Shown: piece after piece, positions 13,957-45,074 of the stretch
Position numbering within the stretch: the first letter of the stretch is position 1
Layout: each line of letters starts with the position of its first letter
Virus record (IMG/VR): IMGVR_UViG_3300025778_000010
Span: 32,001-96,000 of that record
Length of the DNA: 64,000 bases
Strand: one strand, 5' to 3'
Source of the DNA: a virus
Made by a program: the position numbers and the translations under genes
The notes under the pieces: model-generated
Seen by the model: the letters and a program-made list of their open reading frames with translations, nothing else
Database searches by the model: none
What the model was told of the DNA's origin: nothing

Positions 13957-16371
13957 TTATCCAGTAATTACTACGTTGTAAAGAATTCCTGTTGATGGAG
14001 CAGATGCAAATCCAATTGTTACCGTATTTGTATCTTTGTGAGTAATATCTACTTCAACTTCAGCCCATTGAGTATCTGGTGATGCTGAAGCTTGATAAAC
14101 AGCAACTGTAACATCTCTTGTTGATAAGTTATGAACAATATCAAAGCTAGATGCTGAGTTATTACCCGTAATTGTAGCAGATAGTTTTTGGATTCCATAT
14201 GTTCTTGCTCCACCGCTAACACCTGTTGCAGTTTGTGAAACCGTATCAGATGAAAGAATAATGTTATTGCTTGAAATTGCAAGACCAGTTCCAACATTTA
14301 CCTTTAATCCGCTATTTGTTGTTGACAAACCACCTGCGGGATTAAGATTTAATTGAAGTGTTCCGTTGTAAAGGGAAAGACCTGAATTACTTGTAGGTCC
14401 CGTGCTTGTTGTGTCAGAAGAAGAACCTAATGATACTGAAACTTGTGAACCAACAACCAAAATACCATTTCCAGCTGTAATTGTTCCAGAACCAGAGAAC
14501 TGTGTCCAGTTAATTGGATCAGTTCCAATAACAATAGATTGTTTGTTTCCTGTTCCTTGGGTGTTCATTACCCAACCAGTGTTATTTTGTGTTGGTACTG
14601 TTACATACTCGCTTGTGTTTACAGCAACGAATACTAAGTCTCCAGGTGCTACTTGTCCAGCAATATGGTTATCTGAATCTACTGCACGAGTAAGTACCCA
14701 CTTGCTTGAAGAACTACCAGTATTTGTTACAACATAAATACCGTTCCATGTTGCATTTGTTTCATTCTTAATAAGAACACGATCATATTGATCTGGTGTG
14801 TAATTATCAATTGTAAATACACCGTTAATTCCAGATGTAAGTGTTGCACCTACACCGTAACCTCCGCCATTATCAGCTGTTCCAGCAGTATAAACTACTG
14901 TTCCATAAGTTGATCCTAATGGTGCTGTGGTTGCTGCCTCTACTGCATCGTGTGAGTTAAATCCTGTTCCTAAGTTATCAACATATTGCTTTGTAGCAAC
15001 TTGTAGAGCTTGACTTGGATCTGCAGAAACATATACTTGAGCAAATGTTGGTGTAGCTGTTGATCTAATATCTTGAGCTGTATCAAGAGTAATTGAACCG
15101 CTGCCATTTGTAATTGTTACGCCATTTGTTGCACCTTGTGAAAGTGTAGCAACTGCATAAGTTCCATCTGCTTTACCGATTAAAATCTTTCCTGATGTAG
15201 GAGTTGTTGAGGTACCTGTGCCACCTTGTCCAACTGAAAGAGCTGTTGTTAAACCTGAAAGGCTTGTAATACTTGAGTTAGCTCCAGATTCTGCTGCACC
15301 CAAGTTAGTACGTGCACCAGCTGCTGTTGTTGCTCCAGTACCGCCATTTGTAACACTAAGAGCATTTGTTAAGCTAAGTGTTGGAATTGTTACTGTTCCA
15401 GTAAATGTTGGAGATGCAAGTCTTGCAACAGATGCAGGAATATCAGCATCTACAAGAGACCTAAATGTTGGTGTTGCATCTGAACCAGTTGCTGGGCCAG
15501 CAAAAACTGTATTCTTTGCTTGAGTATTAAGTGTTGCTGTAAGTGTTCCAGTTGTTGTTACTGGTGAATTACTTACTGTAAAGATTGATGGGAGTGACAA
15601 AGCAACGCTTGTAACACCTGTATTAGCAATAGTTAATGTATCGCCAAGATTTGTTGTTACAGTTGATGTACCACCATTTACAGAAATTCCAGTTCCTGGG
15701 GTTACTGTAATTGAAGGGTGTACAAGTGCTGAGTTAGGAATATTTGTAAATGTATTTGTTGATCCTGACAAAGATTTATTTGTAAATGTTTGTGTTGAAT
15801 CAAGATCAGCAATTGTATGTGTTCCTGAGTTGTAATAAGCCTTAAATCCTGCTGTTGAATCTAACCAAATATCACCAGCTACTGGTGCAGTTGGTGCAGA
15901 TGTTGCAACTGGAATATTAATTGATGCTCCACCTGTAGTTGAAGCAGTAAATGTTGACTTACCGCCTGTTACAGTAAGAGTTCCGCCCAATGTTGTTGCT
16001 GAACCGTTTGGTACAGCCAATGATCCTGGTAATGTAAGAGCAGAGGCAAGAGAAATAGTAACTGTATTTGTGGCATTAGATACAACTACTTGATTGCTTG
16101 TTCCTGCTACTGTTACGGCTCCAGTAAAGTTGTTTACAGAGCTTACTGTATTGTAGGTAGAGCTAATTTGCTCCCAAGCATAAGTTGCTGGGGTTGTTGG
16201 GTAGTTTGACCAATATGATTGGTAAAGGGCACCACGATTGTTGTTTGCGGTGGTGCTAAAGTATAGTTGACCTGCATTATAAATTGATGGTGCAGATGAT
16301 GCTGAATGGATTACAGCATTTAATAGCTGATTTCCTTTAAGATTAATATTTGTTAAAAACGTTTTTGCCAT
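13957..16371 (-). CDS. long tail fibre protein
   Basis: 804 aa, T/S/G-rich; GGTGATTAAGARTNLG, VATKQYVD and RVLIKNET...NGIY fibre motifs. Confidence 0.8.
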   Translation of the reverse strand: MAKTFLTNINLKGNQLLNAVIHSASSAPSIYNAGQLYFSTTANNNRGALYQSYWSNYPTTPATYAWEQISSTYNTVSSVNNFTGAVTVAGTSNQVVVSNATNTVTISLASALTLPGSLAVPNGSATTLGGTLTVTGGKSTFTASTTGGASINIPVATSAPTAPVAGDIWLDSTAGFKAYYNSGTHTIADLDSTQTFTNKSLSGSTNTFTNIPNSALVHPSITVTPGTGISVNGGTSTVTTNLGDTLTIANTGVTSVALSLPSIFTVSNSPVTTTGTLTATLNTQAKNTVFAGPATGSDATPTFRSLVDADIPASVARLASPTFTGTVTIPTLSLTNALSVTNGGTGATTAAGARTNLGAAESGANSSITSLSGLTTALSVGQGGTGTSTTPTSGKILIGKADGTYAVATLSQGATNGVTITNGSGSITLDTAQDIRSTATPTFAQVYVSADPSQALQVATKQYVDNLGTGFNSHDAVEAATTAPLGSTYGTVVYTAGTADNGGGYGVGATLTSGINGVFTIDNYTPDQYDRVLIKNETNATWNGIYVVTNTGSSSSKWVLTRAVDSDNHIAGQVAPGDLVFVAVNTSEYVTVPTQNNTGWVMNTQGTGNKQSIVIGTDPINWTQFSGSGTITAGNGILVVGSQVSVSLGSSSDTTSTGPTSNSGLSLYNGTLQLNLNPAGGLSTTNSGLKVNVGTGLAISSNNIILSSDTVSQTATGVSGGARTYGIQKLSATITGNNSASSFDIVHNLSTRDVTVAVYQASASPDTQWAEVEVDITHKDTNTVTIGFASAPSTGILYNVVITG

Positions 16372-24454: not shown

Positions 24455-24483
24455 TTGAAAATGTCAGTGGTGTGTGTTATAGT
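24455..24483 (+). promoter_or_regulatory. SigA promoter with PafBC-type element
   Basis: TTGAAA-17-TATAGT containing TGTCAG-N10-TATAGT. Confidence 0.8.
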
Positions 24484-24539
24484 TACACTATAAGAAATTA
24501 ACAAAGGTTGTTAGTTTAACTTAAAGAAAGGAAGTCAAA

Positions 24540-24764
24540 ATGACTTCACTAAATAACTACTATAATGAAATCCGTATGGATATTGCTAAAGATTTTGGTC
24601 TAGAGGCAGGTGGCTATGCTCCCCGCCCTAAGTTAATGCCTATCACTATCGCTCAGCGTATTAACGCTAAGTATCCTAGTGTAGATAATGGCTCTCGTTG
24701 GGGTCAGCCTAATCCAAAGGCTATCCTAATCGCTAAGCGTTATCACGCTCTGTTTGTGGCGTAA
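24540..24764 (+). CDS. hypothetical early protein
   Basis: AAAGGAAG RBS, first gene after promoter. Confidence 0.7.
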   Translation: MTSLNNYYNEIRMDIAKDFGLEAGGYAPRPKLMPITIAQRINAKYPSVDNGSRWGQPNPKAILIAKRYHALFVA

Positions 24765-24820
24765 GTCACAATCACGGCACGGCGTGTCGAGTTGATTTTG
24801 TCAGCCCTATCTGATAGACT
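24755..24820 (+). promoter_or_regulatory. composite promoter: CRP-type box, GACAC box, -35, PafBC-type element, extended -10
   Basis: TGTGG-N6-TCACA; CGGCGTGTCG; TTGATT-17-TAGACT with TGTCAG-N10-TAGACT. Confidence 0.8.
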
Positions 24821-24850
24821 TCCAGTCATACAAATTAAATAAAGAAAAAT

Positions 24851-24924
24851 CCTAGTTGAGCCTCTGAGCCTTAGCAAATAATCCGAAAGGTGAGCCTAAG
24901 CAAATAAGAGCAAATAACACTAGG
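24851..24924 (+). ncRNA. structured leader RNA with three identical internal loops
   Basis: Nested stems CCUAGU/ACUAGG, CUC/GAG, CUUAG/CUAAG and CC-GAAA-GG separated by UGAGC/CAAAUAA loops. Confidence 0.7.
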
Positions 24925-24975
24925 CAAGGAAAGATAGATAAAAGGTTTATCTATAAAAAAAGAAAGGTGACTAAT

Positions 24976-25122
24976 ATGTCATACTCATTCGATAATAATA
25001 ATAAAGACCGTTGGTCAGAACTAGCAGACAATTATCAATCAATGCTAGATGAACTAGCAGAATCAGAATCAGAATCTGTATTTATCCCCGTACCTGCGTT
25101 TGATGTAGACGAGGTGCTCTAA
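24976..25122 (+). CDS. small acidic early protein (48 aa)
   Basis: Read manually: MSYSFDNNNKDRWSELADNYQSMLDELAESESES...; GAAAGGTG RBS. Confidence 0.65.
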   Translation: MSYSFDNNNKDRWSELADNYQSMLDELAESESESVFIPVPAFDVDEVL

Positions 25123-25215
25123 TGACTATAAATAGTTTAACTCTCATTTCACTATTGCTAGTGTCGTACCTATCTGCTAAACTACTAACCGATAAAGAAT
25201 GGGGAAAGAATAAAA

Positions 25216-25422
25216 ATGAAAACTAAGATTATCGTACTAGGATTAGCACTCGCTCTAATTCCCGCCGTTGCTAACGCTCGTGGCACAAGCCATCATTCTT
25301 ATAGCCTGTCTAGTGTAGGTCGCTACACTTATCACTATCACAAGCCTAGCCATATCTATTGCCCATATCAAGGCTGTAAAAAATCGTTCTCTAGTTTCAC
25401 TAGCACTAGTGGCGGAAACTAA
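25216..25422 (+). CDS. small secreted His-rich protein
   Basis: Signal peptide (ANA-R), His/Tyr-rich, one Cys pair. Confidence 0.55.
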   Translation: MKTKIIVLGLALALIPAVANARGTSHHSYSLSSVGRYTYHYHKPSHIYCPYQGCKKSFSSFTSTSGGN

Positions 25423-25444
25423 TGTCAGTGGTCTATGGTAGACT
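25423..25444 (+). promoter_or_regulatory. PafBC-type promoter without canonical -35
   Basis: TGTCAG-N10-TAGACT. Confidence 0.7.
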
Positions 25445-25479
25445 ACTATTAACAACAACAAGAAAAGGAAAATAAATAA

Positions 25480-25644
25480 ATGACAATCGAAAATCGTACT
25501 TACCAAATCGGTGACCTATTCACCACACAACGCTCAAAGGTAACAGGAACAATTAAGGAAATTGTAAATGTAAAGCCTAACCAATCTCGTGTGAAGTTGG
25601 AAGTTGACGGCAAAGACCGCTGGACAACTGTCACAATCAAGTAA
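25480..25644 (+). CDS. small beta-barrel-like protein, paralog 1
   Basis: MTIENRTYQIGDLFTTQRSKVTG...; AAAGGA RBS. Confidence 0.75.
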   Translation: MTIENRTYQIGDLFTTQRSKVTGTIKEIVNVKPNQSRVKLEVDGKDRWTTVTIK

Positions 25645-25663
25645 AGTTTAGCAAATCGCTAAA

Positions 25664-25691
25664 CGACCTGAGCAAGTCGGAAAAAGGCTCA
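25664..25691 (+). ncRNA. H-type pseudoknot motif, copy 1
   Basis: CGAC-CUGAGCAA-GUCG...GCUCA; same architecture at 48342-48375. Confidence 0.5.
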
Positions 25692-25723
25692 ACTAATACC
25701 CAACAAAGAAAAGGAAAAAAAGA

Positions 25724-25894
25724 ATGACACTACACGGATACACTTATCAAATCGGAGATTTATTCACCACATCAAAGACAGGCGTAACTGGACGAATTAA
25801 CTCGTTCTCTCCTGTATCAAATAAAGTAACTCGTGTTGGTCTAACTTTAGCAAATGGCTCAAAGCGTATTGCTATGGTAAAGACAACGAAGTAA
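25724..25894 (+). CDS. small beta-barrel-like protein, paralog 2
   Basis: MTLHGYTYQIGDLFTTSKTGVTG...; AAAGGA RBS. Confidence 0.75.
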   Translation: MTLHGYTYQIGDLFTTSKTGVTGRINSFSPVSNKVTRVGLTLANGSKRIAMVKTTK

Positions 25895-25975
25895 AAATAA
25901 AATAAGTTTAGGCGGGACTGCACACTAATAACGACACTCCCGCCTAATTCACAAAACACGAAAGGAAAACTAATT

Positions 25976-26158
25976 ATGTCAATGTCACGCAAGGACTATG
26001 TTTCAACCGCTGAAATTATTAATTCTTATGCTTCAGAAATTAAACTCGAAGTGCTAGAAGATCTAGTAAATGATTTCATCGAAATGTTCGCATCAGATAA
26101 CGAGCGATTCAATAGCGATAGATTTTGGGACGAGTGTTTTAAAAACACAAATCACTAA
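25976..26158 (+). CDS. hypothetical early protein
   Basis: GAAAGGA RBS; MSRKDY...DNERFNSDRF. Confidence 0.75.
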   Translation: MSMSRKDYVSTAEIINSYASEIKLEVLEDLVNDFIEMFASDNERFNSDRFWDECFKNTNH

Positions 26159-26172
26159 ATAAAAATAAAAGC

Positions 26173-26205
26173 TTAGGCGTAGCAAAATTGCTACGCCTAA
26201 TTTTA
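26173..26205 (+). terminator. intrinsic terminator
   Basis: TTAGGCGTAGCAA-AA-TTGCTACGCCTAA followed by TTTT. Confidence 0.75.
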
Positions 26206-26314
26206 TTAAAAAATAAAAAAAAATAACGGCGTGTCGGCTTGACAAAGCCGAGCCGAGGGGCTGGCCCAAAAAATCGGACATTTACGGCATTTAAGACATT
26301 CGATATACACAGAT

Positions 26315-26335
26315 TTATCCACAAGCTGTGGATTA
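26315..26335. promoter_or_regulatory. inverted pair of DnaA-box-like sites
   Basis: TTATCCACA (perfect) and TGTGGATTA (1 mismatch). Confidence 0.5.
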
Positions 26336-26364
26336 TTGTTCATCTTAAATTAACCTAAAACTTA

Positions 26365-26404
26365 CGGCGTGTCGCTTGATTTTTTCGATTTTATCTGATA
26401 AACT
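26365..26404 (+). promoter_or_regulatory. GACAC-box promoter, diverged copy of the 24780 promoter
   Basis: CGGCGTGTCG; TTGATT-17-TAAACT. Confidence 0.7.
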
Positions 26405-26437
26405 TCCAGTTATAAAATTAAATAAAGATATAAAAAA

Positions 26438-26453
26438 TGTGATGTACTTCACA
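26438..26453. promoter_or_regulatory. perfect CRP/GlxR-type palindrome
   Basis: AAA-TGTGA-TGTACT-TCACA. Confidence 0.65.
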
Positions 26454-26562
26454 AAGTACACGCTCCAAATATTGAGACTACTCCCCAGTATACTCGATAG
26501 TAGCGAAAAAGTATGTTAAACTAGCGATAGTTAAACAGTTAAAAAAGAAAGGTGGTCATAAA

Positions 26563-26862
26563 ATGGCTACACTAGAAGTAAAAGTAAATGATAGTTTTGT
26601 TCCGCTTGAGTATGCTCCAAGCGATGTAAAGATTTCTCTTGAGTGGGCGTTAATGAATAATGCTCCAATGGTAGTAAAATCCACTACCCCCGCCGTTGTT
26701 CGTGTTTGCAAAGTTTGCGAATATGCACACGAAGGTTTGTATTGCACAAATTGTTTCACGGGTGAGCGTGTAAATTGCTCCCCTGCTGGCAAGTTTAATA
26801 AATGGTCAAAAGTGATGCGAATCACACCAACTACTTGCAACAAATCTCGGCGTGTCGCCTAG
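26563..26862 (+). CDS. Cys-rich hypothetical early protein
   Basis: GAAAGGTGG RBS; CKVC and CTNC. Confidence 0.65.
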   Translation: MATLEVKVNDSFVPLEYAPSDVKISLEWALMNNAPMVVKSTTPAVVRVCKVCEYAHEGLYCTNCFTGERVNCSPAGKFNKWSKVMRITPTTCNKSRRVA

Positions 26863-26888
26863 ATAATGTCAGTATAATCTGATATAAT
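26848..26888 (+). promoter_or_regulatory. GACAC-box plus PafBC-type promoter
   Basis: CGGCGTGTCG; TAGATA-17-TATAAT; TGTCAG-N10-TATAAT. Confidence 0.8.
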
Positions 26889-26922
26889 TCCAACTATCAA
26901 CAAAAAGAAAGGTGGCAACTTA

Positions 26923-27147
26923 ATGCTAATCTCAGAAGCCTTAGAAGGCAAATATGTAAAGTCCTCAAAAGGACAAGGCATAATCCAATATGCAGATTTC
27001 CGAAAGGATATGCACCACTCTACCCCTGAGGGTTATCTTGCTTATGCTTGCAAGGTTCGCCCTACTTATAACCCTGAAGTGCATAAGTTTATTCCAGAAG
27101 ATTTCTGGACAACAATTTATGTCGGATTGGATAGTGAATTACTATGA
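26923..27147 (+). CDS. hypothetical early protein
   Basis: GAAAGGTGG RBS. Confidence 0.7.
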   Translation: MLISEALEGKYVKSSKGQGIIQYADFRKDMHHSTPEGYLAYACKVRPTYNPEVHKFIPEDFWTTIYVGLDSELL

Positions 27148-27350
27148 CAATTAAAATTGGTGGGCTAGGGCAGACAATTTCTGCCTATTGCCCAGTATGC
27201 TCTCAAAAGATGACCCATATGTGTATCGCTACACTTGGAACGGGTAAAACAATTCGCTATGAGTGGCAATGCCAGCCTTGCGAATTATCTCTAAAGTCTG
27301 ACTCAACAGGCTATGCTCATCTACTCACAGAAATGGCTTACTATGTCTGA
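27144..27350 (+). CDS. zinc-ribbon hypothetical protein
   Basis: CPVC and CQPC; ATGA overlap. Confidence 0.65.
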   Translation: MTIKIGGLGQTISAYCPVCSQKMTHMCIATLGTGKTIRYEWQCQPCELSLKSDSTGYAHLLTEMAYYV

Positions 27351-27459
27351 TAAAATTTTCATATGTGATGAATGTGATACCCTTGCCACAATGTCAGTGC
27401 AAGGTGATACAATAACTATAAATAAATGTAAGTGCTTAACTTTAGAATGGAGCAACTAA
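27343..27459 (+). CDS. 38-aa Cys-rich protein with an embedded PafBC-type promoter
   Basis: MSDKIFICDECDTLATMSVQGDTITINKCKC...; TGTCAG-N10-TACAAT at 27392-27413. Confidence 0.5.
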   Translation: MSDKIFICDECDTLATMSVQGDTITINKCKCLTLEWSN

Positions 27460-27665
27460 TGTACAAAATTACAACAACCTATGACGGAAATCCCGTCCCA
27501 CACTCTATTCACTCTTATGCTGATGCACTTGATGCGTTTGACTCGTTTGGTCGTTGCACCGATTGGGGATTTGCAGATGAATATGCAACCTACAATTTAA
27601 CTTTACCTGATGGAAAAATGTACACAAAGATTTTTTATCGTAGCGGAAAAGTTGGTGGAAAGTAA
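27459..27665 (+). CDS. hypothetical early protein
   Basis: GGAG RBS, start MYKITT. Confidence 0.7.
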   Translation: MYKITTTYDGNPVPHSIHSYADALDAFDSFGRCTDWGFADEYATYNLTLPDGKMYTKIFYRSGKVGGK

Positions 27666-27962
27666 TGGCAACAACAATTCACCTTGGCGGAATAGAATCA
27701 GAATGTGAGAAGTGTCGTGAAATTGCGGGAGAAAATAATGAATAAAGTAAATCGTGTTCAAGAGTTGCGGAGATCAAATGCTGCAACTCCAATTCGTAAC
27801 AAGAAAAAATATACACGTAAAAATAAATATAAAAATAAATTTGAATAAATATTTATAACATTGCATAGCTATGCGACACGCCCGAGTGCGGCTGGCCCCT
27901 GTCAACTCGACACGCCGATTACGGGGTGTGATTTTAATCTCCCAAATACTGGCGGGTACAAC

Positions 27963-27991
27963 TAGATAATGTCAGTGGGTTCTGCTATACT
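27963..27991 (+). promoter_or_regulatory. PafBC-type promoter
   Basis: TAGATA-17-TATACT; TGTCAG-N10-TATACT. Confidence 0.8.
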
Positions 27992-28021
27992 TCCGATATC
28001 AAGAAAAGAAAGGGGCATTAA

Positions 28022-28249
28022 ATGTCTACTGTTGCCACATATTGCAAAGATTGCAATAAGCGTTTATCTGATATTTCAGTATATGACGCTCCCTATACTT
28101 CCGATTCTACTTGCTGGGAGTGTATCTTCAAGTCCTGCGATAACTGCTATGGTCAAGGAATTACTGGATGGGTATCTCCAGATGGTGATTTTGATTTTGA
28201 TTATTGCGAGTGCAACCCACTTTGCCTAACACTAGAAGAGGTCAAATAA
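28022..28249 (+). CDS. Cys-rich zinc-finger protein
   Basis: GAAAGGGG RBS; three CxxC and one CxC. Confidence 0.7.
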   Translation: MSTVATYCKDCNKRLSDISVYDAPYTSDSTCWECIFKSCDNCYGQGITGWVSPDGDFDFDYCECNPLCLTLEEVK

Positions 28250-28440
28250 TGACTAATGAAACTATTTTTGAAGTAGCCTGCCTATACTATGAAGTATGCG
28301 GTACAAGCGAAGTATTCTACTCTGAAGAAGAGTATGATATCTATGGCGATGATTATGTCTGCCCTGAGTGCTATTATCAGATGGCGGAAATGGAGTCTGA
28401 TTCCTTCCCGCTATCTTTAGAATATGATGAGGGGGAATAA
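28249..28440 (+). CDS. small acidic zinc-binding protein
   Basis: GAGG RBS, start MTNETI; D/E/Y-rich; CPEC. Confidence 0.65.
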   Translation: MTNETIFEVACLYYEVCGTSEVFYSEEEYDIYGDDYVCPECYYQMAEMESDSFPLSLEYDEGE

Positions 28441-28518
28441 TGTCTGACAAGTCTGCTCAAGATCTATTTAATGAAATGGATACCCTTTGGGATAATTTCA
28501 AGAAAGCCACATGGCAAA

Positions 28519-28540
28519 TGTCAGTGGTGCCTGCTACAAT
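28519..28540 (+). promoter_or_regulatory. PafBC-type promoter
   Basis: TGTCAG-N10-TACAAT. Confidence 0.75.
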
Positions 28541-28563
28541 AACATCCTTAACCCAACCAAAGA

Positions 28564-29049
28564 ATGGAAACTAACATGACAACAACCCTAACCCGTGGCG
28601 AAGCCAAAGATACAATTGATTTCGCAATTGAACAATTTATCAACGAGATTGAAGTCTCTGATGATATGCTATTAACGATTACCTATGCCGTAAATAATGA
28701 CTTGCAGATTCGTGATTACTTCCTTGGGCTCCCGTCCGATTATGGTATGCAGGTATGCGTTGATTTTGTCAACTATCTTTCACGAGTAACTAATGCACGA
28801 GAAGGATATGCATATGACACAATTTCTGCAATGTATCATATTGAACAAGGCAACACAGACTTGGCTAAGTCTCTGCTAGAAATTGCAGAAAAAAATAATC
28901 CTGATTATAATCTCATGAAACTTGCGAAGAGAATTCTTTCAGCAGGTTGGCCAGGTTCCGAATTAACTAGAATGCGTAATGAATTGCATTCTTCAGTTGT
29001 GGATACTATCACCGAAGAGCCAAATATTTTAATTGAAGAGGTGGCGTAA
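28564..29049 (+). CDS. helical hypothetical protein (DUF4192-like)
   Basis: DLQIRDYFLG...PDYNLMKL resembles the actinobacterial DUF4192 C-part. Confidence 0.5.
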   Translation: METNMTTTLTRGEAKDTIDFAIEQFINEIEVSDDMLLTITYAVNNDLQIRDYFLGLPSDYGMQVCVDFVNYLSRVTNAREGYAYDTISAMYHIEQGNTDLAKSLLEIAEKNNPDYNLMKLAKRILSAGWPGSELTRMRNELHSSVVDTITEEPNILIEEVA

Positions 29050-29207
29050 TGTCAGCACCATATGCAACAATTAACGGCGTTGAGGTTCATGAGGACCTCA
29101 ACGGCTATGCCGTGGTCATGAAGAATGGCAAGGTAATTAAAAAGTATACCAACTCAAGAGAAGACGCATTAGGCAAAGCAATGCACTATGCACAGGAGAT
29201 TAAATAA
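29049..29207 (+). CDS. hypothetical 52-aa protein
   Basis: Read manually: MSAPYATINGVEVHED...; GAGGTGG RBS. Confidence 0.6.
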   Translation: MSAPYATINGVEVHEDLNGYAVVMKNGKVIKKYTNSREDALGKAMHYAQEIK

Positions 29208-29423
29208 ATGGCAAAGCATCCACCAGTCAACAGTGCACAATGGCATTCTGTATTTGCAGATGATCAATGCAAAATTTATCAAGACGGTAACGATGATATT
29301 TTTTTCAAGGTCATGATCAAGGGCCAACGTGTTAAATATTTTTATAATGAAACAGCTCATAGCGACGTTGCACGTTACTGCAGCGACGAGCTTGGAATTA
29401 GCTATTGGTCCGTATTAAATTAA
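29208..29423 (+). CDS. hypothetical early protein
   Basis: AGGAG RBS. Confidence 0.7.
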   Translation: MAKHPPVNSAQWHSVFADDQCKIYQDGNDDIFFKVMIKGQRVKYFYNETAHSDVARYCSDELGISYWSVLN

Positions 29424-29684
29424 TTTAACTTGGGTGGGGAATAAAATGCAAGCGGTAGCATATGTATTGGTCTATGGATCTGCATTCGCTATCGCATGCA
29501 TTTTTTATTTTATATTTTCTAAAAAAGATTTTTAAATGCGGTGTGTCGAGTTGACAACCGTTGATTTTTGGGCTGGCCCGTCAAGCCGACACGCCGTTTA
29601 CGGGGCGTGATTTTAATCACATGGAATGGGCGGGGACAAAACGGACATATCAGACAAATCATTATTTAACTTAGGCTTTACGGG

Positions 29685-29714
29685 TAGACAGATGTCAGCC
29701 TTATCTGCTAGAAT
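29685..29714 (+). promoter_or_regulatory. PafBC-type promoter
   Basis: TAGACA-18-TAGAAT; TGTCAG-N10-TAGAAT. Confidence 0.8.
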
Positions 29715-29745
29715 AGGCATACATTAACAGAAAGAAGGAAAAAAT

Positions 29746-30786
29746 ATGACTAACCCAATGTCACAGGTTCATCGCTCAGAAGTTGAGGATGGTTCTGTAT
29801 CTCTTGCTGTATCACTTCGCACAAATCCTGCATGGCACTCTTTTGCTAACAAGGTATTTGCTAAGGATGAGCAAGTCACAACCGCACAAATGCTAGATGC
29901 TGCTAAACTCTCAAATTGGAATGTTTCTCTTGAGTCTGTTTCAGATTTATTGCCAGACAACTATGATTCTGTTAGCGAGAATTTTTTGGTTGTTCGTGAT
30001 AACCCTTACACAGCAGGACAAAAAGATGTTCTCTCAGTTGTAGGCTCACGCTATAAGGCTGTTCAGAATGAAGAACTCTTTTCTTTTGCAGATAACCTAC
30101 ATGATGGAAACCCTGATGTAAATTGGGAAAGTGCAGGTTCTCTAAAGAATGGTCGTGTTGTATTTGGCACAATGTCAATTCCCCGCACTATGGTTCTTGA
30201 CCCTAATGGTGCTAATGACACTACCAATCTTTATCTCGTAGTTTACACTTCACACGATGGTTCAGTTGCGGTTCAATCTGCAATTACCCCTGTTCGTGTT
30301 ATGTGTCAAAACACTCTTAATTTCGCTATGCGTAAGGCTAAGCAATCTTTCAAGATTCGCCACACTCAGACAGTAGATGGAAAAATTGCTGCTGCTCGTG
30401 AGACTCTAGGTCTAACTCTTGCGTACATGGATGAATTCGAAACACAAGCAAAAGAACTTTTCTCTCGTGAAGTGACAAATGCTAAGTTTAGCGAAATCAT
30501 TAACAAGATGTATCCTAAGCCAGAGGCAGATGTTAAGGGTTCAATCAAGAAGTGGGAAAACAAGGTTGTTCTGCTTGATGACCTTTACCATAACTCTCCT
30601 ACTAATGCTAATATCAAGGGTACAGCATGGGGCGTTGTAAATGCTCTAACCGAACGCCTTGATTACTATCGCACAGCCCGCAAGGGAAACAGCGATTCGC
30701 TAATGGCAGGTGCAAGCGGATTTGACCCTGTTATCACAGCAGAAAAAAATAAAATTGTTAAGCAGGTTCTTGCACTTACCGCTTAA
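29746..30786 (+). CDS. DUF932 family phage/plasmid protein
   Basis: PAWH, Y-x-x-VQN, ESAGSLKNGR, SHDGS, TPVRVMCQNTL, GTAWGVVNALTE. Confidence 0.85.
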   Translation: MTNPMSQVHRSEVEDGSVSLAVSLRTNPAWHSFANKVFAKDEQVTTAQMLDAAKLSNWNVSLESVSDLLPDNYDSVSENFLVVRDNPYTAGQKDVLSVVGSRYKAVQNEELFSFADNLHDGNPDVNWESAGSLKNGRVVFGTMSIPRTMVLDPNGANDTTNLYLVVYTSHDGSVAVQSAITPVRVMCQNTLNFAMRKAKQSFKIRHTQTVDGKIAAARETLGLTLAYMDEFETQAKELFSREVTNAKFSEIINKMYPKPEADVKGSIKKWENKVVLLDDLYHNSPTNANIKGTAWGVVNALTERLDYYRTARKGNSDSLMAGASGFDPVITAEKNKIVKQVLALTA

Positions 30787-30792
30787 TAAATT

Positions 30793-30814
30793 GTGAGGGG
30801 CGAAAGCCCCTCAC
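30793..30814 (+). terminator. GC-rich hairpin with GAAA loop (terminator or processing site)
   Basis: GTGAGGGGC-GAAA-GCCCCTCAC. Confidence 0.6.
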
Positions 30815-30821
30815 CTCTCTT

Positions 30822-30895
30822 GATTCCATAGATCAATTGGTTAGATCGCTACCCTGTCACGGTAGAGGTTGCGGGTTCAAGTCCCGTTGGAATCG
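30822..30895 (+). tRNA. tRNA-Asp(GTC)
   Basis: Cloverleaf; anticodon arm CTACC-CTGTCAC-GGTAG; no encoded CCA. Confidence 0.93.
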
Positions 30896-31045
30896 CAAAG
30901 TTTAAATGGTCATCACGGCGTGTCGAGTTGACAAAACAGCTGGGGCGGGCTGGCCCCATAAAATCCATAATGTCAAGTCTTTACGGATGTGATTATAAAC
31001 ACATTTACGGATGACCGATATGTCCGATTTGTCTGCGTGTCTAAA

Positions 31046-31074
31046 TTGATTACTCATGGGTAACTTGCTATAAT
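31046..31074 (+). promoter_or_regulatory. SigA promoter, near-leaderless
   Basis: TTGATT-17-TATAAT with TG extension; ATG 8 nt downstream. Confidence 0.7.
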
Positions 31075-31082
31075 ACTCACCT

Positions 31083-31724
31083 ATGGAAAATGTAAAAGAA
31101 ACTTGGTTCAAATGGGATTATGTATGCCCAAATTGCGATGCACATATTGAGATGACTATTAAATCTAATGGTCATCCACATAGCGAGATTTGTTCTAAAT
31201 GCTATGAGCGTCTAACTCTGATGTCAGTGGTAGATGCTACAATATACCCAACTCAAAAGAAAGAAGAACAAACTATGGAAACAACAATCGCTGAACTTTA
31301 TAACCCAAATATGTTGGTTACATATAAGAAGATTACTGATGGTAATACTGAATATATTACTGATAAGGTAACTGATATTGAGTGGGCTCTTGCTCAATCC
31401 CGCCGTAACTATGAGAGCCTTACAGAGCAACAAAATAATTGGTATCTCAAAGAGTCAAAACTACGCACTTTGCTAAATGATGTATTTCACGATTCAGAAG
31501 ACCAAGACACACTTGAAAAAATTGCTGATATTTTTGATGTTCCACTAACTAAGGAAATCGAAGTAACCGCTTGGGTCAATGTCAATATGACTATCGAAGT
31601 TGATATGCGTGAAGGCGAATATGATGTTGAAGACCTTGTTCGCAATAATCTCACAGTAGATGCCTATGGTGGAGAAATCACAGTTCACGACTTTGATGTA
31701 GACCGAGTAGAGGAGCAATACTAA
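31083..31724 (+). CDS. hypothetical protein: N-terminal Zn ribbon and likely second in-frame start at 31275
   Basis: CPNC and CSKC; internal TGTCAG-N10-TACAAT at 31222-31243 before METT. Confidence 0.7.
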   Translation: MENVKETWFKWDYVCPNCDAHIEMTIKSNGHPHSEICSKCYERLTLMSVVDATIYPTQKKEEQTMETTIAELYNPNMLVTYKKITDGNTEYITDKVTDIEWALAQSRRNYESLTEQQNNWYLKESKLRTLLNDVFHDSEDQDTLEKIADIFDVPLTKEIEVTAWVNVNMTIEVDMREGEYDVEDLVRNNLTVDAYGGEITVHDFDVDRVEEQY

Positions 31725-31996
31725 TGGCAGTAGCAGTTATTGAAGTCCCGTCCCCTGCTCGTATGGCGAACGGGATTAGCAAATGCCTAACCGCTGGAAT
31801 TGAATATGAGATGCTGGGTGGGATGCAGGTAGAGATTACTTGTGCTGATGAGATGAAGTTAGCTAGAATAATTACAGCCTTTGGCGGTAAAATCCTAAGT
31901 GCTTTTAATCATAAACCAATCACACCAGATGCCCCTAAGCACGAAGTCCAATATGCTAGGACACATAGACCAATTCAGACACGCCGAAAGAATTGA
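31724..31996 (+). CDS. hypothetical protein
   Basis: GAGGAG RBS, TAATG overlap. Confidence 0.65.
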   Translation: MAVAVIEVPSPARMANGISKCLTAGIEYEMLGGMQVEITCADEMKLARIITAFGGKILSAFNHKPITPDAPKHEVQYARTHRPIQTRRKN

Positions 31997-32022
31997 CATA
32001 AGCACCCCGCTTGTGTTAGAAT
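31978..32022 (+). promoter_or_regulatory. GACAC box plus SigA promoter
   Basis: GACACGCCG; TTGACA-18-TAGAAT. Confidence 0.7.
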
Positions 32023-32061
32023 ACAACCTCAACCCCTAACAAAGAAAAGGAAAACCCAACA

Positions 32062-32478
32062 ATGGCAAAAGCAATCTCAGTTAAAGTAGCAACACCAAAG
32101 GTAATCGCCGCTTTGGAAACAAAGTTGGAAACAATAAAAACAACTAAGGCAAATGAAAAGCAATTAGAGGCTGCTTTCCAAGAAGAACTAAAGGCTTGGA
32201 ATAAGGCTTTGTTTGATTATGCTCTATCAAAGTTTGACTCTGCTACAAATATCCGCACCAATTATCGTAGTTGGTCAAACTCTCTTAACATTGACTTTGA
32301 TGTTGATACACAAGGCAAGGATTTTCCTGCTCAACCTACTCGTCAATTTGAGCAACTTCACGACCACAACTATCGTGAAATTGTTGATGAAATTGAGAAC
32401 GCAATTCGTATTCTCAAAATGACAGATGAGGAAACAGTTAATGCTTCCACATTTAAGTCAATCGCACAGTATCTCTAA
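32062..32478 (+). CDS. hypothetical early protein
   Basis: AAAAGGA RBS; 138 aa. Confidence 0.75.
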   Translation: MAKAISVKVATPKVIAALETKLETIKTTKANEKQLEAAFQEELKAWNKALFDYALSKFDSATNIRTNYRSWSNSLNIDFDVDTQGKDFPAQPTRQFEQLHDHNYREIVDEIENAIRILKMTDEETVNASTFKSIAQYL

Positions 32479-32607
32479 TTAGTTAATCACTTGGGAGGGA
32501 AGTCTTGACTTCCCTCCCCTTATCTGATAGGATACGCAAATGGCAATCATATTTTTATTAGGCACAATTTTTGTAATCGCAGTAATAGCACTAGGAGGAA
32601 TACTATA

Positions 32608-32976
32608 ATGGGAGCACGAGTTAATTTTGTTTTCAAGACCGAGGAAGACAAGCCAAAGATTGTTTTGTATAGTCATTGGGGAGAATACTCATGGCGTGAA
32701 GATTTGGCTAATGCCTTAGATAAGGCAACACCTAGATTAAAAATGGGTGATAGTTCATATGCTCTCCGTATTATCATTGACCAACTAACAAAAGAAGGTC
32801 GGGATGAAGAAACAGGCTTCGGTCTTTATATTGCGGATGAAGACCAAATGTATTGGGATACCACAGTTGAAGTAGACCTTACAACTCAACAGGTAAATGA
32901 TGAAGGAAACTGGCATTCATTTTCATCATTCATTGAATATCAAGGTGAGGTGTTAGAGTATCATGTTGGGGTATAA
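32608..32976 (+). CDS. hypothetical phage protein
   Basis: AGGAGG RBS; MGAR...LYSHWG motif. Confidence 0.75.
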   Translation: MGARVNFVFKTEEDKPKIVLYSHWGEYSWREDLANALDKATPRLKMGDSSYALRIIIDQLTKEGRDEETGFGLYIADEDQMYWDTTVEVDLTTQQVNDEGNWHSFSSFIEYQGEVLEYHVGV

Positions 32977-33140
32977 ATTAGAGGATTTGAATAAGATGAT
33001 TGATGCTACTTATTTAGCTTTAAATTATCTTCCCCCCGCACAAACAGATCTTGCAGATAATCTAGCCAAAGCAAATGATTTTCTCCAGGGTCTTTGGGCA
33101 GAGGGCTACTTTGAGTAGCCTGAGCCTGACCAGTAATTTG

Positions 33141-33215
33141 GACATTTACGACATTACGGACATTACGGAGGATCGCTTGAACACATTTACGAGGGGCTTG
33201 ACAAAACCTTTTACG
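33141..33215 (+). repeat. CATT(T)ACG direct-repeat cluster
   Basis: GACATTTAC-GACATTACG-GACATTACG, then ACATTTACG and TTTTACG. Confidence 0.65.
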
Positions 33216-33233
33216 ATAGGATAAAATAGGGCT

Positions 33234-33419
33234 ATGAAAGAATACGAGATACTAGCAACCCAATCAATTTACCTATCAAAGAAGGTAATGGCTGAAACAG
33301 AGGCAGAAGCAAATGCTATTGCTGCAAACACACCAGTAGATGAGTGGACAACTGATTCTACTGAATTAATTATTGATTTCCTACGCACAGAACCTGTGCA
33401 GTTACGACTTGACATCTGA
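33234..33419 (+). CDS. leaderless hypothetical protein
   Basis: TTGACA-18-TAAAAT at 33198-33227; ATG 6 nt later. Confidence 0.7.
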   Translation: MKEYEILATQSIYLSKKVMAETEAEANAIAANTPVDEWTTDSTELIIDFLRTEPVQLRLDI

Positions 33420-33472
33420 TATCTTGATGTAGTAGAATACCCATACTGACCAACTAGTAGAAAGAATGACAA

Positions 33473-34195
33473 ATGCCAAACTGGGTGTATAACGGATTAA
33501 CCATTGAAGGTAGTCCTGAATCTGTAGATAAACTTGTATCTCAACTTAATCAACCATTTACTGTGATGCACGAAACATGGGATATTTCTACCAATTCTTT
33601 TATTAAGAAAAATACTCTTTATTCAAACCCTGTTTTTGCATTTTGGAATATAGTTAAACCAACAGACATGGATGCATATTATGGTCCAAGTCCAAAAGTT
33701 GATTTAAATAAGCCTATTAGATTTGATTCAAATCATTGGTACGACTGGAATGTGCGTAACTGGGGAACAAAATGGGATGTAGCCATATCTGTAACTGAAA
33801 GCCATCCAGAAACATATATGGAAGGCCCTATTAATAACGGTGATAATAAAGTAGTTTATTATAACTTTAATACTGCTTGGAGTTATCCTGAGCCTGCTAT
33901 TAAGAATCTTTCTTTACAGTTCTCCGACCTTTTATTTACGTTAGGCTACGAAGAAGAAACAGGCTGGGGTGGCGAAGCAGAATTCCTTAGAGGCGAAATA
34001 ATTAGTCATAATCAATATGACTACAAATGTAAAGACTGTGAATATGCAACTAGTGATGCATTAGAGTTTTGCGAAGACTGCTCAGATTATCCTTGTCCGC
34101 AATGTGGTTGGGCGAGTGCAGTTGACGAATGCCCTGTCCATAGTGTAGAATACGACCAGAAACAAACCCAACTACAGGAGGCAAATAATGTCTGA
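33473..34195 (+). CDS. DUF1281/YubB ferredoxin-like domain protein
   Basis: MPNW, WYDWNVRNWGTKWD, FNTAWS, Cys-rich tail; promoter TTGACA-18-TAGAAT at 33409-33438. Confidence 0.75.
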   Translation: MPNWVYNGLTIEGSPESVDKLVSQLNQPFTVMHETWDISTNSFIKKNTLYSNPVFAFWNIVKPTDMDAYYGPSPKVDLNKPIRFDSNHWYDWNVRNWGTKWDVAISVTESHPETYMEGPINNGDNKVVYYNFNTAWSYPEPAIKNLSLQFSDLLFTLGYEEETGWGGEAEFLRGEIISHNQYDYKCKDCEYATSDALEFCEDCSDYPCPQCGWASAVDECPVHSVEYDQKQTQLQEANNV

Positions 34196-34448
34196 CCAAT
34201 TAACTTTAGACCCATATCTACAACGTATGGTTGAAGCAGGTATGGACGGTGCGGATATCATGCACGGTCATCTTAAGGTCCTAATGGCACGTGCAGAGAG
34301 TGCATTAGCAGACGCCATAGAGGACGAAGAGGCTTCGGGTGAGGCCATGGATAGCATGGAGCGACGGTACTGGGAGGGTGTGGAAGAAGCATACTCAGAA
34401 CTGTATAAATTAACTTATGCTATTGCATTTGCAAAGGCGGGTAAGTAA
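34188..34448 (+). CDS. hypothetical protein
   Basis: AGGAGG RBS. Confidence 0.7.
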   Translation: MSDQLTLDPYLQRMVEAGMDGADIMHGHLKVLMARAESALADAIEDEEASGEAMDSMERRYWEGVEEAYSELYKLTYAIAFAKAGK

Positions 34449-34572
34449 TGAAGACTTATCGTATCACTTTTATCTGTGATGAAAAATGGTTAGAAGCCAT
34501 TAATAAATTTACAGATGTAGATGTATATGACAACGAAATATTATACATAGAGCACTTTGAGGAGATCAACTA

Positions 34573-34887
34573 ATGTCATCATCAATGTTTGTACAAACCA
34601 ATTCATATCTAGATAATCTAAAATGGGAGTTTCCTAATCATGCCCCGTTGGTCCTATTGTACATGTGGGACATCACCCGTGATGTCTTTCAAGATATTGA
34701 ATTATCTGACGGGGATTCTTCTTGGGGAGAACTTATCCCAGTTCCTGGAACTACTTTAGAGGATGTATGGAATAAGTTTATTAAAGATCCTTGGGGCGGA
34801 TTTGACGTAGAAGAATATGATGTAGTACAATGGTTGTCCCGTGAAGACTTTATCCAAGACTATGAGGGCGAGGAAGTAGATGAATAA
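34573..34887 (+). CDS. acidic hypothetical protein
   Basis: GAGGAG RBS; D/E/W-rich. Confidence 0.7.
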   Translation: MSSSMFVQTNSYLDNLKWEFPNHAPLVLLYMWDITRDVFQDIELSDGDSSWGELIPVPGTTLEDVWNKFIKDPWGGFDVEEYDVVQWLSREDFIQDYEGEEVDE

Positions 34888-35176
34888 ACTAGAAGAGCGT
34901 ACATATAAAAAGCTTGTAGAAGGCCTTGGACACAACGATGTCTCACCTGCAGCAATGGCAAGACATATGTTAAATGAATCTCGTTATGTTAACGAATCGT
35001 TCATCCAATTGTTTACAAACTACATAATCCAAATGGGCACCGCACATACGGTCCCACTATATCTAAAAGAATCACACGATTTGTGCAAGTACATGCTTAC
35101 CACCCTGCAGGAGTTGGGCCTAATGGGAGAATATGGAAGAATGGAACTTGACACAAACGAATACCTGTCGGTATAA
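34880..35176 (+). CDS. hypothetical protein
   Basis: Overlapping ORF, last gene of plus-strand island. Confidence 0.7.
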   Translation: MNKLEERTYKKLVEGLGHNDVSPAAMARHMLNESRYVNESFIQLFTNYIIQMGTAHTVPLYLKESHDLCKYMLTTLQELGLMGEYGRMELDTNEYLSV

Positions 35177-35182
35177 TAGGTA

Positions 35183-35271
35183 TTCGAACAAAATCCTAGC
35201 GTTCAGGTGTCAGCCAAGTTAGGTATACAAGGGCAGTTCACGAGTCATTCCGTGAACTGCCTTTCTCTTTT
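35183..35271 (+). ncRNA. candidate ~90-nt sRNA
   Basis: TTGACA-18-TATAAT (35148-35177) followed by an ORF-less stretch ending in a terminator. Confidence 0.5.
35232..35271 (+). terminator. intrinsic terminator
   Basis: GGCAGTTCACG-N8-CGTGAACTGCC-TTTCTCTTTT. Confidence 0.85.
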
Positions 35272-35296
35272 CCCAGAGCCAGAGATCTAAAAACCC

Positions 35297-35820
35297 AGAC
35301 ATTACGAAGGGGCTTAAAATTCACGGGGAGTTTGCTGGTTTAAACTAACACATTAATAAAAATATATCAAAGCCAGTATAAGAAATATACCAGACATTAC
35401 GAAGGCATATACGGTAACATTTGTCAAGAGATATCTGTGTGATCTTGATCATATATTTATATAAAATGTATAATAAAATAAAAACATTACGATTTCGATC
35501 AAAATTCACACGATATTCTATACATTTAGATCAAAATTGTCTAATATTATATCAAAATTGTCAAAAATGTGTGCAAAATCACCCATATTTTTATGTGATA
35601 TATATCATATCGCACGGATTTGACATTACGAAGGGCATTATGGTATGCTCTATAACTTGATACAATCTATCTATATATACTAACTGAGTTTATTTAACAT
35701 AATACTGTGTATATTCTCCACTTTGCTCCACAATGCTCCACATATAGCCCATAAAAAGGGCGGAAACGAGCGTTAGCGAGTCTACTTTATATAGCCAGAT
35801 AGCAACCTATAGCCCTATAG
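35297..35820. repeat. non-coding AT-rich convergence zone with several short direct-repeat families
   Basis: ACATTACGA x4, ATCAAAATT x3, CTCCAC x3 at 10-bp period, ATAGCC x3. Confidence 0.65.
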
Positions 35821-43575: not shown

Positions 43576-43868
43576 TTACCTAGCTCCTCCAAAATTGCTT
43601 CAGCAGTACGTGATTCAATACGATCAACAATCTCTCCTCGCTTCATTGTAAAAATTTGAGGAATACTCTTGATTCCATAATATTCTACAGTAGATGAGTC
43701 AATTTTGTCAACATCTACCAAATAATAATTAGTTTCAGCATCAATTACGGATACTTTGCCGTAATGTGGTTTTAACTGTTTGCAGGGATTACACCAGTCT
43801 GCTGTAAAATAAACTACACATTCATCTTCAGCAATAAATTCGTTTACATCATTTGTAATTTTAAGCAA
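43572..43868 (-). CDS. thioredoxin
   Basis: WCNPC and SIP motifs. Confidence 0.9.
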   Translation of the reverse strand: MLKITNDVNEFIAEDECVVYFTADWCNPCKQLKPHYGKVSVIDAETNYYLVDVDKIDSSTVEYYGIKSIPQIFTMKRGEIVDRIESRTAEAILEELGK

Positions 43869-44315: not shown

Positions 44316-44559
44316 CAGTGTATTTCATCCCTTCTATTTCGCATGGAGTCCCAAATGCTTGAATTAATTCACGAACATGAAGTAAGTATTCCATGATCTG
44401 CATTCTTTGACTTTCGTTGTATTCCATAACATTACTTTCATAAACAGTTAAAGCAAGGTAGTTTGGTCTTGCTCTGACATCTAATATAAGATTTTTAACA
44501 GGACATTTAATTGCCCTAATCCTTTTAGCCATTTCAACTGTGTAAGATATTTTTGCCAT
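44281..44559 (-). CDS. hypothetical protein
   Basis: Coupled ORF. Confidence 0.65.
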   Translation of the reverse strand: MAKISYTVEMAKRIRAIKCPVKNLILDVRARPNYLALTVYESNVMEYNESQRMQIMEYLLHVRELIQAFGTPCEIEGMKYTDEQARARRGQR

Positions 44560-44860
44560 GAATTTTCTTTAACTGACTCCATATTTCTGGGTCTTTGTGT
44601 GAGTTATTTTGTTTATCTATACGACCTAAGTCCATAAAAATACCGCCTCGTACACCAAACTCTTTATTTGCTACACCTTCTTTATGACATTGTTTAATTA
44701 CTGGACAATGTAAACAAACTTGATCAATTTGTTTGGCAAGCTCTTTATCTGATTCATAATCATCATAAAACCAATTAATTGACATATTTGTGCATGCTGC
44801 AAGGTGATACCATTTGATATCAACTTCATCAATTCCTAAATGACTAAATAAACCTGGCAT
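44534..44860 (-). CDS. whiB: WhiB family Fe-S transcription factor
   Basis: W...AAC...VCLHCPVIKQC...FGVRGG (four Cys plus a GVWGG-like turn). Confidence 0.85.
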   Translation of the reverse strand: MPGLFSHLGIDEVDIKWYHLAACTNMSINWFYDDYESDKELAKQIDQVCLHCPVIKQCHKEGVANKEFGVRGGIFMDLGRIDKQNNSHKDPEIWSQLKKIHGKNILHS

Positions 44861-45074
44861 ACTTATCGCTAACCTTCCAAGTACCACGGTTAGTCATTTT
44901 ATAATAAGTTGCGTATCCCCACTTACCTTTTCTAAACAAACCATTTGTTGCCATGTAACCATCAGGGTTTTGATTCCACTTTACTAAAGTATAACCGTCC
45001 CAAAAAAAATTGTTTTTAATATTTTTTTCTACAAAAGCATGTGCTTCTTCGTAGTTTAATTCAAAAGATGGCAT
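44844..45074 (-). CDS. hypothetical protein
   Basis: Coupled ORF. Confidence 0.7.
   Translation of the reverse strand: MPSFELNYEEAHAFVEKNIKNNFFWDGYTLVKWNQNPDGYMATNGLFRKGKWGYATYYKMTNRGTWKVSDKYARFI

Follow-up and report, generated by a model that had tools for sequence, protein, structure and literature searches.

Promoters of the PafBC Type in a Freshwater Phage and Their Probable Reading by the Host DNA-Damage Activator

Introduction

A 64-kb stretch of viral DNA, referred to here as the window and corresponding to bases 32001–96000 of the 108,356-bp IMG/VR virus record IMGVR_UViG_3300025778_000010, carries nine plus-strand copies of the composite motif TGTCAG-N10-TAnnnT between positions 24462 and 31243 (all phage positions are those of the window). 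Judged from their sequence and surroundings, these sites are genuine promoters serving a run of small genes that all point in one direction, and they are probably read by the host RNA polymerase carrying the sigma factor SigA and adapted by the host DNA-damage activator PafBC. The promoter type and its regulator are thus known, and what would be new is their use by a lytic phage family, a view that is partly supported by the sequence comparisons described below. A full-text literature search found no paper linking PafBC or RecA-NDp promoters to promoters of lytic phages.

The motif of PafBC defined by chromatin immunoprecipitation sequencing is tGTCgg(N10)tA(N3)T. Its element is located at −26, a −35 is lacking, and the motif is read by RNA polymerase–SigA in a complex where PafBC is lodged between the DNA and sigma region 4 (PMC8635444). 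PafBC enters this complex only once it has bound single-stranded DNA (ssDNA) (PMC11804915). RecA-NDp promoters are spread across Actinobacteria, and recA itself has both a RecA-NDp promoter and an SOS box (PMC8223512).

TGTCAG Promoters of the Small-Gene Block

The composite TGTCAG-N10-TAnnnT matches 12 times in the window, against 0.69 expected from shuffled sequences, among which the highest of 100 shuffles gave 3. Nine of the 12 matches form the plus-strand array, and a preliminary description of this DNA, made from its letters without database searches, had listed the same nine sites with invariant spacing; all were recovered at exactly those coordinates. The remaining three matches, at 15749 (minus), 48232 (minus), and 55402 (plus), have neither the TG nor the flanks and seem to be chance occurrences. 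Bare TGTCAG is not enriched in the window (25 copies versus 28.9 expected) and, therefore, the signal is the composite with its fixed spacing.

The sites read TGTCAGTG in six of the nine cases, TGTCAGTA in one, and TGTCAGCC in two, so that most of them share one reading, as had been described, and all nine display a TG one base before the −10, i.e., a TGn extended −10. The absence of a −35, previously noted for several copies, extends to the whole set, since the best hexamers at 17–18 nucleotides (nt) agree with TTGACA at only 3–4 of 6 positions and none of the nine sites has a usable −35. With TGTCAG near −26, a 10-nt spacer to TAnnnT, and no −35 consensus, every site displays the features of a PafBC-type promoter, and the proposed likeness to the RecA-NDp/PafBC motif holds in its geometry, which is that of the published consensus (PMC8635444). 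Downstream of eight of the nine sites, a purine-rich ribosome-binding site and a start codon follow within 23–56 nt, and several sites have a hairpin terminator ahead of them (at 24775, 27911, and 29590). Most sites are part of a repeated unit composed of a terminator, a promoter, a short leader with a ribosome-binding site, and a gene.

A scoring matrix built from 819 unique sites of the phage relatives gives the nine sites 22–34 bits, and everything else in the 108-kb genome remains below 20 bits. The only other notable scores in the whole genome belong to 29050 (19.1 bits) and 25162 (14.7 bits), both within the block. Two degenerate copies had been proposed earlier. The one at 29050 is plausible, whereas the one at 35208 falls away, as it scores below 9 bits, has TATACA as −10 and no TG, and lies directly before the hairpin at 35229–35264; the weak copy at 25162 was absent from that description.

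No LexA/SOS box was found in the 64-kb window with up to two mismatches allowed. The leader behind promoter 2 (24828–24975) yields a plain-fold z of −0.25, which gives no support for a structured RNA, and an Rfam search matched the tRNA only, with nothing in this leader. Two further candidates were rejected. The idea that TGTCAG is a displaced −35 (ATGTCA agrees with TTGACA at 4 of 6 positions) fails on distance, since 11 nt from the −10 is too short a spacing for sigma region 4. Moreover, the strings that resemble GACAC boxes of WhiA (CGGCGTGTCG and CACGCC...GGCGTG), found at 24775–24789, 26850, 27911–27930, and 29590–29609, are arms of terminator-like hairpins with T-runs located just upstream of promoters.

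Conservation across Phage Relatives

The relatives considered here are 80 IMG/VR loci retrieved via the DUF932 protein (53–92% identity, 36–41% G+C). All 80 carry TGTCAG-N10-TAnnnT on the gene strand in 2–18 copies (5–18 in 78 of them), with 0–1 copies on the opposite strand. The spacing is equally strict when counted without conditioning on the full motif. Among 884 unique gene-strand TGTCAG hexamers, TAnnnT follows at a spacer of 10 in 727, at a spacer of 9 in four, and at a spacer of 11 in one; conversely, 379 of 648 TGnTAnAAT elements are accompanied by TGTCRG, always at the same offset.

The consensus of the 819 unique sites is AA-TGTCAG-T-S-S-N4-TG-n-TAtAAT, in which the −35 position contains almost no information and the TGTCAG box is conserved at least as well as the −10. 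Position 5 of the motif is A in 91% and G in 9% of the family, and the continuation defines two sub-variants, TGTCAG-TGG/TGC (54%) and TGTCAG-(A/T/C)CC (38%). The sites of six complete relatives are gathered in a single one-strand cluster of 7–14 kb, with up to 21 copies in one complete genome. The motif is, thus, a trait of the freshwater phage family.

The Same Motif in Candidate Host Lineages

Candidate host lineages were sampled starting from an Aquiluna metagenome-assembled genome (MAG). A search of genome contigs with the ribonucleotide reductase of the phage provided only this MAG and a Solirubrobacter genome as usable entry points. MAGs of a cyanobacterium, Saccharibacteria, Bacteroidia, and Brevundimonas were rejected as hosts, as their phage-family contigs (ribonucleotide reductase 77–86% identical) are probable binning errors.

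The WYL domain occurs in 299 of 301 genomes sampled from the class of the Aquiluna MAG, a tally that includes the unpublished genomes G008, G016, G025, G031, G033, G037, G044, and G264, used for no other claim. Tandem WYL genes are present in all five complete genomes checked. Pfam assigned one such pair to a PafB-like protein (WYL and WCX) and a PafC-like protein (HTH_PafC and WYL), and in a second complete genome a TatC gene directly follows the WYL pair; in mycobacteria the gene order is pafB–pafC–tat. The supposition that the host would possess pafBC is, thus, borne out at the level of these candidate actinobacterial lineages.

The motif itself is present before recA. Twenty-five small actinobacterial genomes (1.3–1.9 Mb) yielded 22 recA loci, and TGTC[AG]G-N10-TAnnnT stands upstream of every one. 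The complete genomes of 1.3–1.5 Mb have TGTCAGTGGCGCCTGCTACCTT here, with the LexA box tcgaacagatgttcg behind it, and TGTCAGTGGCGCCTGCTACCTT agrees with the phage site at 28519 in all but 3 of 22 positions. The recA site of one genome is TGTCAGCCC, which is the second (CCC) variant of the phage. Furthermore, TGTCAGTG-N8-TAnnnT gives 53 matches in 14 small actinobacterial genomes, against 3 for a reversed control.

In the complete genome G141 (1,440,005 bp, 48.8% G+C), the phage-derived matrix finds seven matches of at least 12 bits, compared to one in a shuffle. The top matches precede a UvrD plus PD-(D/E)XK (AdnAB-like) helicase-nuclease gene, recA, and rmuC, the three ranked first, as well as carD and genes of an island described below. 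All ten best matches are directly upstream of an open reading frame (ORF), and several of these genes look leaderless. Exact counts in G141 amount to 11 for TGTCAG-N10-TAnnnT and 4 for TGTCGG, with 1–2 for the controls, and A is preferred at position 5 of the motif in G141 as in the phage family.

Two further observations concern these lineages in their own right. The carD gene is preceded by a PafBC-type promoter whose −10 is extended (TGTCAG(T/C)GATGGCTGGTAGAAT) at G250:C1:74767, G296:C1:80926, G096:C1:101229, and G141:C1:81501. In addition, seven PafBC-type promoters are clustered in a 30-kb island of G141 (G141:C1:440001-470000) that encodes a DrmD-like SNF2 helicase (PADLOC E 2e-127), a C5 DNA methylase, an OGG-like glycosylase, TPR proteins, a subtilase, and a trypsin-like peptidase, and similar promoter clusters are found at 380–500 kb in 13 related genomes. 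This arrangement suggests that the DNA-damage activator may also drive a defence island in a candidate host lineage.

Which Factor Reads the Box

The phage sites can be regarded as hybrid promoters. The host polymerase, carrying its housekeeping sigma factor, would recognise a near-consensus extended −10 (TGnTAnAAT), and an invariant TGTCAG occupies the place of the −35, covering about −28 to −23 and ending exactly 10 nt before the −10. There, the ssDNA-bound WYL-domain heterodimer PafBC would slot in between the DNA and sigma region 4 to read the −26 element, a mode of activation known as sigma adaptation. Most likely the phage has no reader of its own and uses the PafBC of its host in this way, and the small genes would fire when the cell senses ssDNA, which might come from the incoming genome, from resection of its linear ends, or from phage replication. 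Consistent with a host-borne reader, no WYL domain and no Sigma70_r2 or r4 domain was found in the whole phage genome, and BLASTP of the phage proteins against host PafB/C revealed no homologue (best E 0.078).

The preliminary description had gone further in proposing that the phage wires its early genes to the host sensor, so that infection itself would switch them on. The identity of the motif, the presence of pafBC in candidate lineages, and the lack of any reader found in the phage speak for the link to the sensor, whereas direct action of PafBC is, like activation by infection and early timing, a prediction from sequence. A broader version of the idea is rather doubtful. In it, this globally abundant family of lytic lake phages would have shifted most of its early programme from the ordinary −35/−10 promoters that its Streptomyces relatives retain onto the host ssDNA alarm, and takeover or anti-defence genes would respond to the signal that also arms the host, in whose likely lineages the box heads genes of a defence island with a DISARM-like helicase and a methylase. 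During replication, dozens to thousands of high-affinity phage sites could also draw PafBC away from repair and defence promoters of the host, which would be unable to silence the phage without losing its own DNA-damage response.

Several observations weigh against reading by PafBC. The −10 elements of the host lineage are weak (TACCTT, TTGAAT, CACGAT) compared to the near-consensus, TG-extended −10 of the phage, which could work without an activator. The phage has 36% G+C, against 48.8% in the best-matching complete genome. The box might instead be recognised by a small phage-encoded protein outside the known families.

Further objections come from a second promoter class. Six canonical promoters of the type TTGACA/TTGACT-N17/18-TAnnnT continue the same plus-strand block downstream of the TGTCAG sites, where they had been missed by the preliminary description, and about a dozen further TTGACA promoters serve the minus-strand replication genes. 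Orthologous genes have a TGTCAG promoter in some relatives and a TTGACA promoter in others. The gene at 32062, preceded here by TTGACA, has TGTCAG in 49 of 60 contexts in relatives, and the gene at 33473 has a TGTCAG promoter in 32 contexts in relatives. Since promoter classes are swapped between relatives, including the six TTGACA promoters of this phage, coupling to DNA damage would not be obligatory for these genes, and the TGTCAG box does not mark a strictly separate gene set. Moreover, the homologous block of Streptomyces phage Wofford is run from −35/−10 promoters, with −35-like TTGMC and TAGACT placed after terminators, and contains zero TGTCAG sites. The box is, therefore, an innovation specific to the freshwater lineage.

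Three other ways of reading these promoters have to be weighed. SigA polymerase might act by itself through the extended −10, leaving TGTCAG as a shut-off operator or as a PafBC decoy that blunts the damage and defence response of the host. Extended −10 promoters can do without a −35, and all nine sites have TGnTAnnnT, but in the relatives the box is conserved at least as well as the −10. A decoy would have numbers on its side, as the phage block contains one site per 0.75 kb and G141 about one per 100 kb, so that replicating phage DNA would outnumber the chromosomal sites; the sites of the host lineage, in addition, precede genes of the island with the DrmD-like helicase and the C5 methylase. 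However, each box stands at one fixed distance from a −10, upstream of a gene and never elsewhere or on the opposite strand, which is the pattern of an activator site, and, unlike most repressor operators, it is not palindromic. Polymerase acting alone, with either role for the box, is thus unlikely.

Alternatively, TGTCAG could be read by a phage factor of no recognisable family that replaces −35 recognition in the manner of MotA/AsiA of phage T4. Such a factor would be made from the canonical TTGACA promoters or be virion-borne, the block would be a delayed-early or middle class, and its resemblance to host promoters would reflect mimicry or convergence. The coexistence of two promoter classes, with TTGACA serving the downstream block and the replication genes as in temporally classed phages, fits this scheme, as does the Streptomyces relative without the box, and most of the small proteins belong to no Pfam family, so a novel DNA binder is possible. 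Nevertheless, the block already opens with a promoter of the TGTCAG class, and the swapping of classes among orthologues is contrary to a strict temporal separation. Furthermore, neither a WYL or sigma domain nor a PafB/C-like protein is present in the phage, although no search was aimed at the MotA/AsiA families. The same box, spacing, A at position 5, TGG/CCC continuation, and TG extension stand before recA and repair genes in phage-free chromosomes of the candidate host lineages, which makes a phage-borne reader quite improbable.

Least of all is to be expected from another factor of these low-G+C actinobacterial hosts, such as an uncharacterised regulator or a WhiB-like protein that docks on sigma region 4. 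The phage does encode a WhiB, but no WhiB-like protein is known to read a specific hexamer at −26, the pafB–pafC pair is conserved in the candidate host lineages, the WYL domain is nearly universal in their class, and the motif-bearing genes of host-lineage genomes are DNA repair genes (recA with its SOS box, the AdnAB-like gene, rmuC), with recA arranged as in mycobacteria. That PafBC dependence of the motif has been demonstrated only in mycobacteria (PMC8635444, PMC11804915) leaves such a factor a very slight chance. The host PafBC is, therefore, preferred here as the probable reader of the phage promoters.

Phage Genome and Gene Block

The source genome has 36% G+C and a CheckV completeness of 100%, and its overlapping ends give a circular assembly. 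The 24 public runs holding the sequence are all freshwater DNA metagenomes. The nearest counterparts of the phage ribonucleotide reductase (66% identity) and terminase (65%) belong to 127–134-kb Streptomyces phages of the Stanwilliamsviridae, to which the DUF932 gene is also nearest. Since these three genes are nearest to Streptomyces phages and the phage encodes a WhiB-like protein, its gene content points to an actinobacterial host. No tyrosine or serine integrase was found in the whole 108-kb genome, so the earlier statement that the window lacks an integrase can be extended to the entire phage, which its sequence marks as a lytic freshwater actinophage. Isolated Planktophila phages (PMC10202952) were rejected as relatives, being unrelated phages of 39 kb.

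The block runs on the plus strand up to a strong intrinsic terminator (Table 1), and most of its proteins have no Pfam match. The gene order is that of Wofford, i.e., ribonucleotide reductase, glycosyltransferase, a few genes, and a long one-directional run of small genes including DUF932, which in Wofford lies at the left genome end; Streptomyces phage Gilson has no comparable small-gene block at its left end. On the basis of this synteny with the small-gene block of Wofford and of the gene content (small genes of unassigned function), the block genes are probably early or host-takeover genes.

Table 1. Promoters, genes, and other features of the window.
Feature	Position	Strand	Remarks
Promoter 1, TGTCAGTGGTGTGTGTTATAGT	24462..24483	+	25.2 bits; first of the block, past a 240-nt non-coding gap; ATG 24540
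Promoter 2, TGTCAGCCCTATCTGATAGACT (CCC sub-variant)	24799..24820	+	23.2 bits; hairpin 24775–24789 upstream; 155-nt leader; ATG 24976
Promoter 3, TGTCAGTGGTCTATGGTAGACT	25423..25444	+	31.1 bits; ATG 25480
Promoter 4, TGTCAGTATAATCTGATATAAT	26867..26888	+	22.3 bits; ATG 26923
Promoter 5, TGTCAGTGCAAGGTGATACAAT	27392..27413	+	28.2 bits; ORF 27432–27665
Promoter 6, TGTCAGTGGGTTCTGCTATACT	27970..27991	+	32.6 bits; hairpin 27911–27930 upstream; ATG 28022
Promoter 7, TGTCAGTGGTGCCTGCTACAAT	28519..28540	+	34.0 bits; 19/22 bases as in the recA promoter of 1.3–1.5 Mb actinobacterial genomes; ATG 28564
Promoter 8, TGTCAGCCTTATCTGCTAGAAT	29693..29714	+	22.8 bits; hairpin 29590–29609 upstream; DUF932 gene behind
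Promoter 9, TGTCAGTGGTAGATGCTACAAT	31222..31243	+	28.5 bits; in-frame ATG 31275; inside frame 31083–31724, gene start ambiguous
Weak copy, TGTCAGCACCATATGCAACAAT	29050..29071	+	19.1 bits; −10 AACAAT; overlaps start codon of ORF 29049–29207
Weak copy, TGTCGTACCTATCTGCTAAACT	25162..25183	+	14.7 bits
Canonical promoters, TTGACA/TTGACT-N17/18-TAnnnT (TAnAAT type)	31993, 32505, 33198, 33409, 35148, 35620 (span 31993–35649)	+	
DUF932 (phrog_1221) gene	29746..30786	+	homologous to Wofford gp3; behind promoter 8
tRNA-Asp	30822..30896	+	within the gene block
Strong intrinsic terminator	35229..35264	+	end of the plus-strand block
WhiB-like gene	44534..44887	−	marker for an actinobacterial host

Promoter 9 lies inside the frame 31083–31724 (213 codons), the first 83 residues of which give a sub-threshold DpnI-like match (24.2 bits versus a cut-off of 26.7). 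As this promoter (31222) is accompanied by a good ribosome-binding site with an ATG (31275), the frame either has an internal promoter and start or is non-coding in its upstream part.

Separately, ACATTACGR occurs in nine copies in the window versus 0.69 expected. Six copies are on the plus strand (span 33151–35631), namely a tandem pair at 33151/33160 and those at 35299, 35394, 35484, and 35623, the last four in a 600-nt non-coding stretch past the block terminator; the minus-strand copies include those at 43759 and 50798. Iterons, an origin, or binding sites close to the end of the genome are possible explanations of these repeats.

Significance

PafBC and sigma adaptation have so far been known only as a bacterial DNA-damage response. 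If the phage promoters are read as proposed, they would represent a new phage route to transcription takeover, relying on a host activator instead of the phage-made factor of T4 or the repressor loss of SOS-type systems. In the most abundant freshwater actinobacteria, ssDNA sensing, induction of a defence island, and the timing of phage genes would then be linked. The 819 unique sites also constitute natural promoter variants for dissecting what PafBC reads, and assays for this exist in Mycobacterium smegmatis. New to this analysis are the motif before all 22 recA loci, the whole-genome matrix scan of G141, the pafB–pafC–tatC synteny, the class switching at orthologues, and the contrast with Wofford.

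Comparison with Known Systems

PafBC/RecA-NDp promoters (PMC8635444, PMC11804915, PMC8223512) share with the phage sites TGTC(A/G)G near −26, placed 10 nt before TAnnnT, and the lack of a −35, and in likely host lineages with pafBC the same box precedes recA, the AdnAB-like gene, and rmuC. The phage sites differ in being located on a lytic phage, with nine copies in 6.8 kb (2–18 per locus in relatives), in a near-consensus, TG-extended −10 where the bacterial −10 is weak, and in A instead of G at position 5. Furthermore, they are followed by leaders with a ribosome-binding site, whereas the bacterial transcripts are often leaderless, they have no LexA box alongside, and their dependence on PafBC is putative.

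The middle promoters of T4, with a MotA box at −30 and sigma appropriation by AsiA, resemble the present ones in that an activator box takes the place of the −35, a normal −10 is kept, and a class of phage genes is served. However, the T4 factors are phage-encoded and remodel sigma region 4, whereas no such factor was found in the present phage, whose box is that of a host regulon. The terminal-repeat arrays of SPO1, T5, and Streptomyces phages of cluster BE (Wofford) are alike in being runs of small genes, most of them with their own promoter and terminator, and Wofford also shares the DUF932 gene (gp3) and the neighbouring glycosyltransferase and ribonucleotide reductase in the same order. 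In contrast, the Wofford promoters are of the TTGMC and TAGACT type, and the present contig is assembled as a circle.

Phages coupled to the SOS response (LexA/RecA), as in prophage induction, likewise tie their expression to the DNA-damage signal of the host. In the present phage, which has no LexA box, integrase, or sign of lysogeny, such coupling would take place through an activator and not through the loss of a repressor. Finally, the WYL defence regulators BrxR and CapW and the phage resistance linked to PafBC follow the same ssDNA-sensing logic, and PafBC-type promoters lie in the DrmD-like/C5 methylase island of the host lineage. According to the account given in PMC12848934 of Rafique et al. 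2025, PafBC influences mycobacteriophage resistance. In those systems the host employs the sensor against phages, whereas in the freshwater family the phage would be its user.

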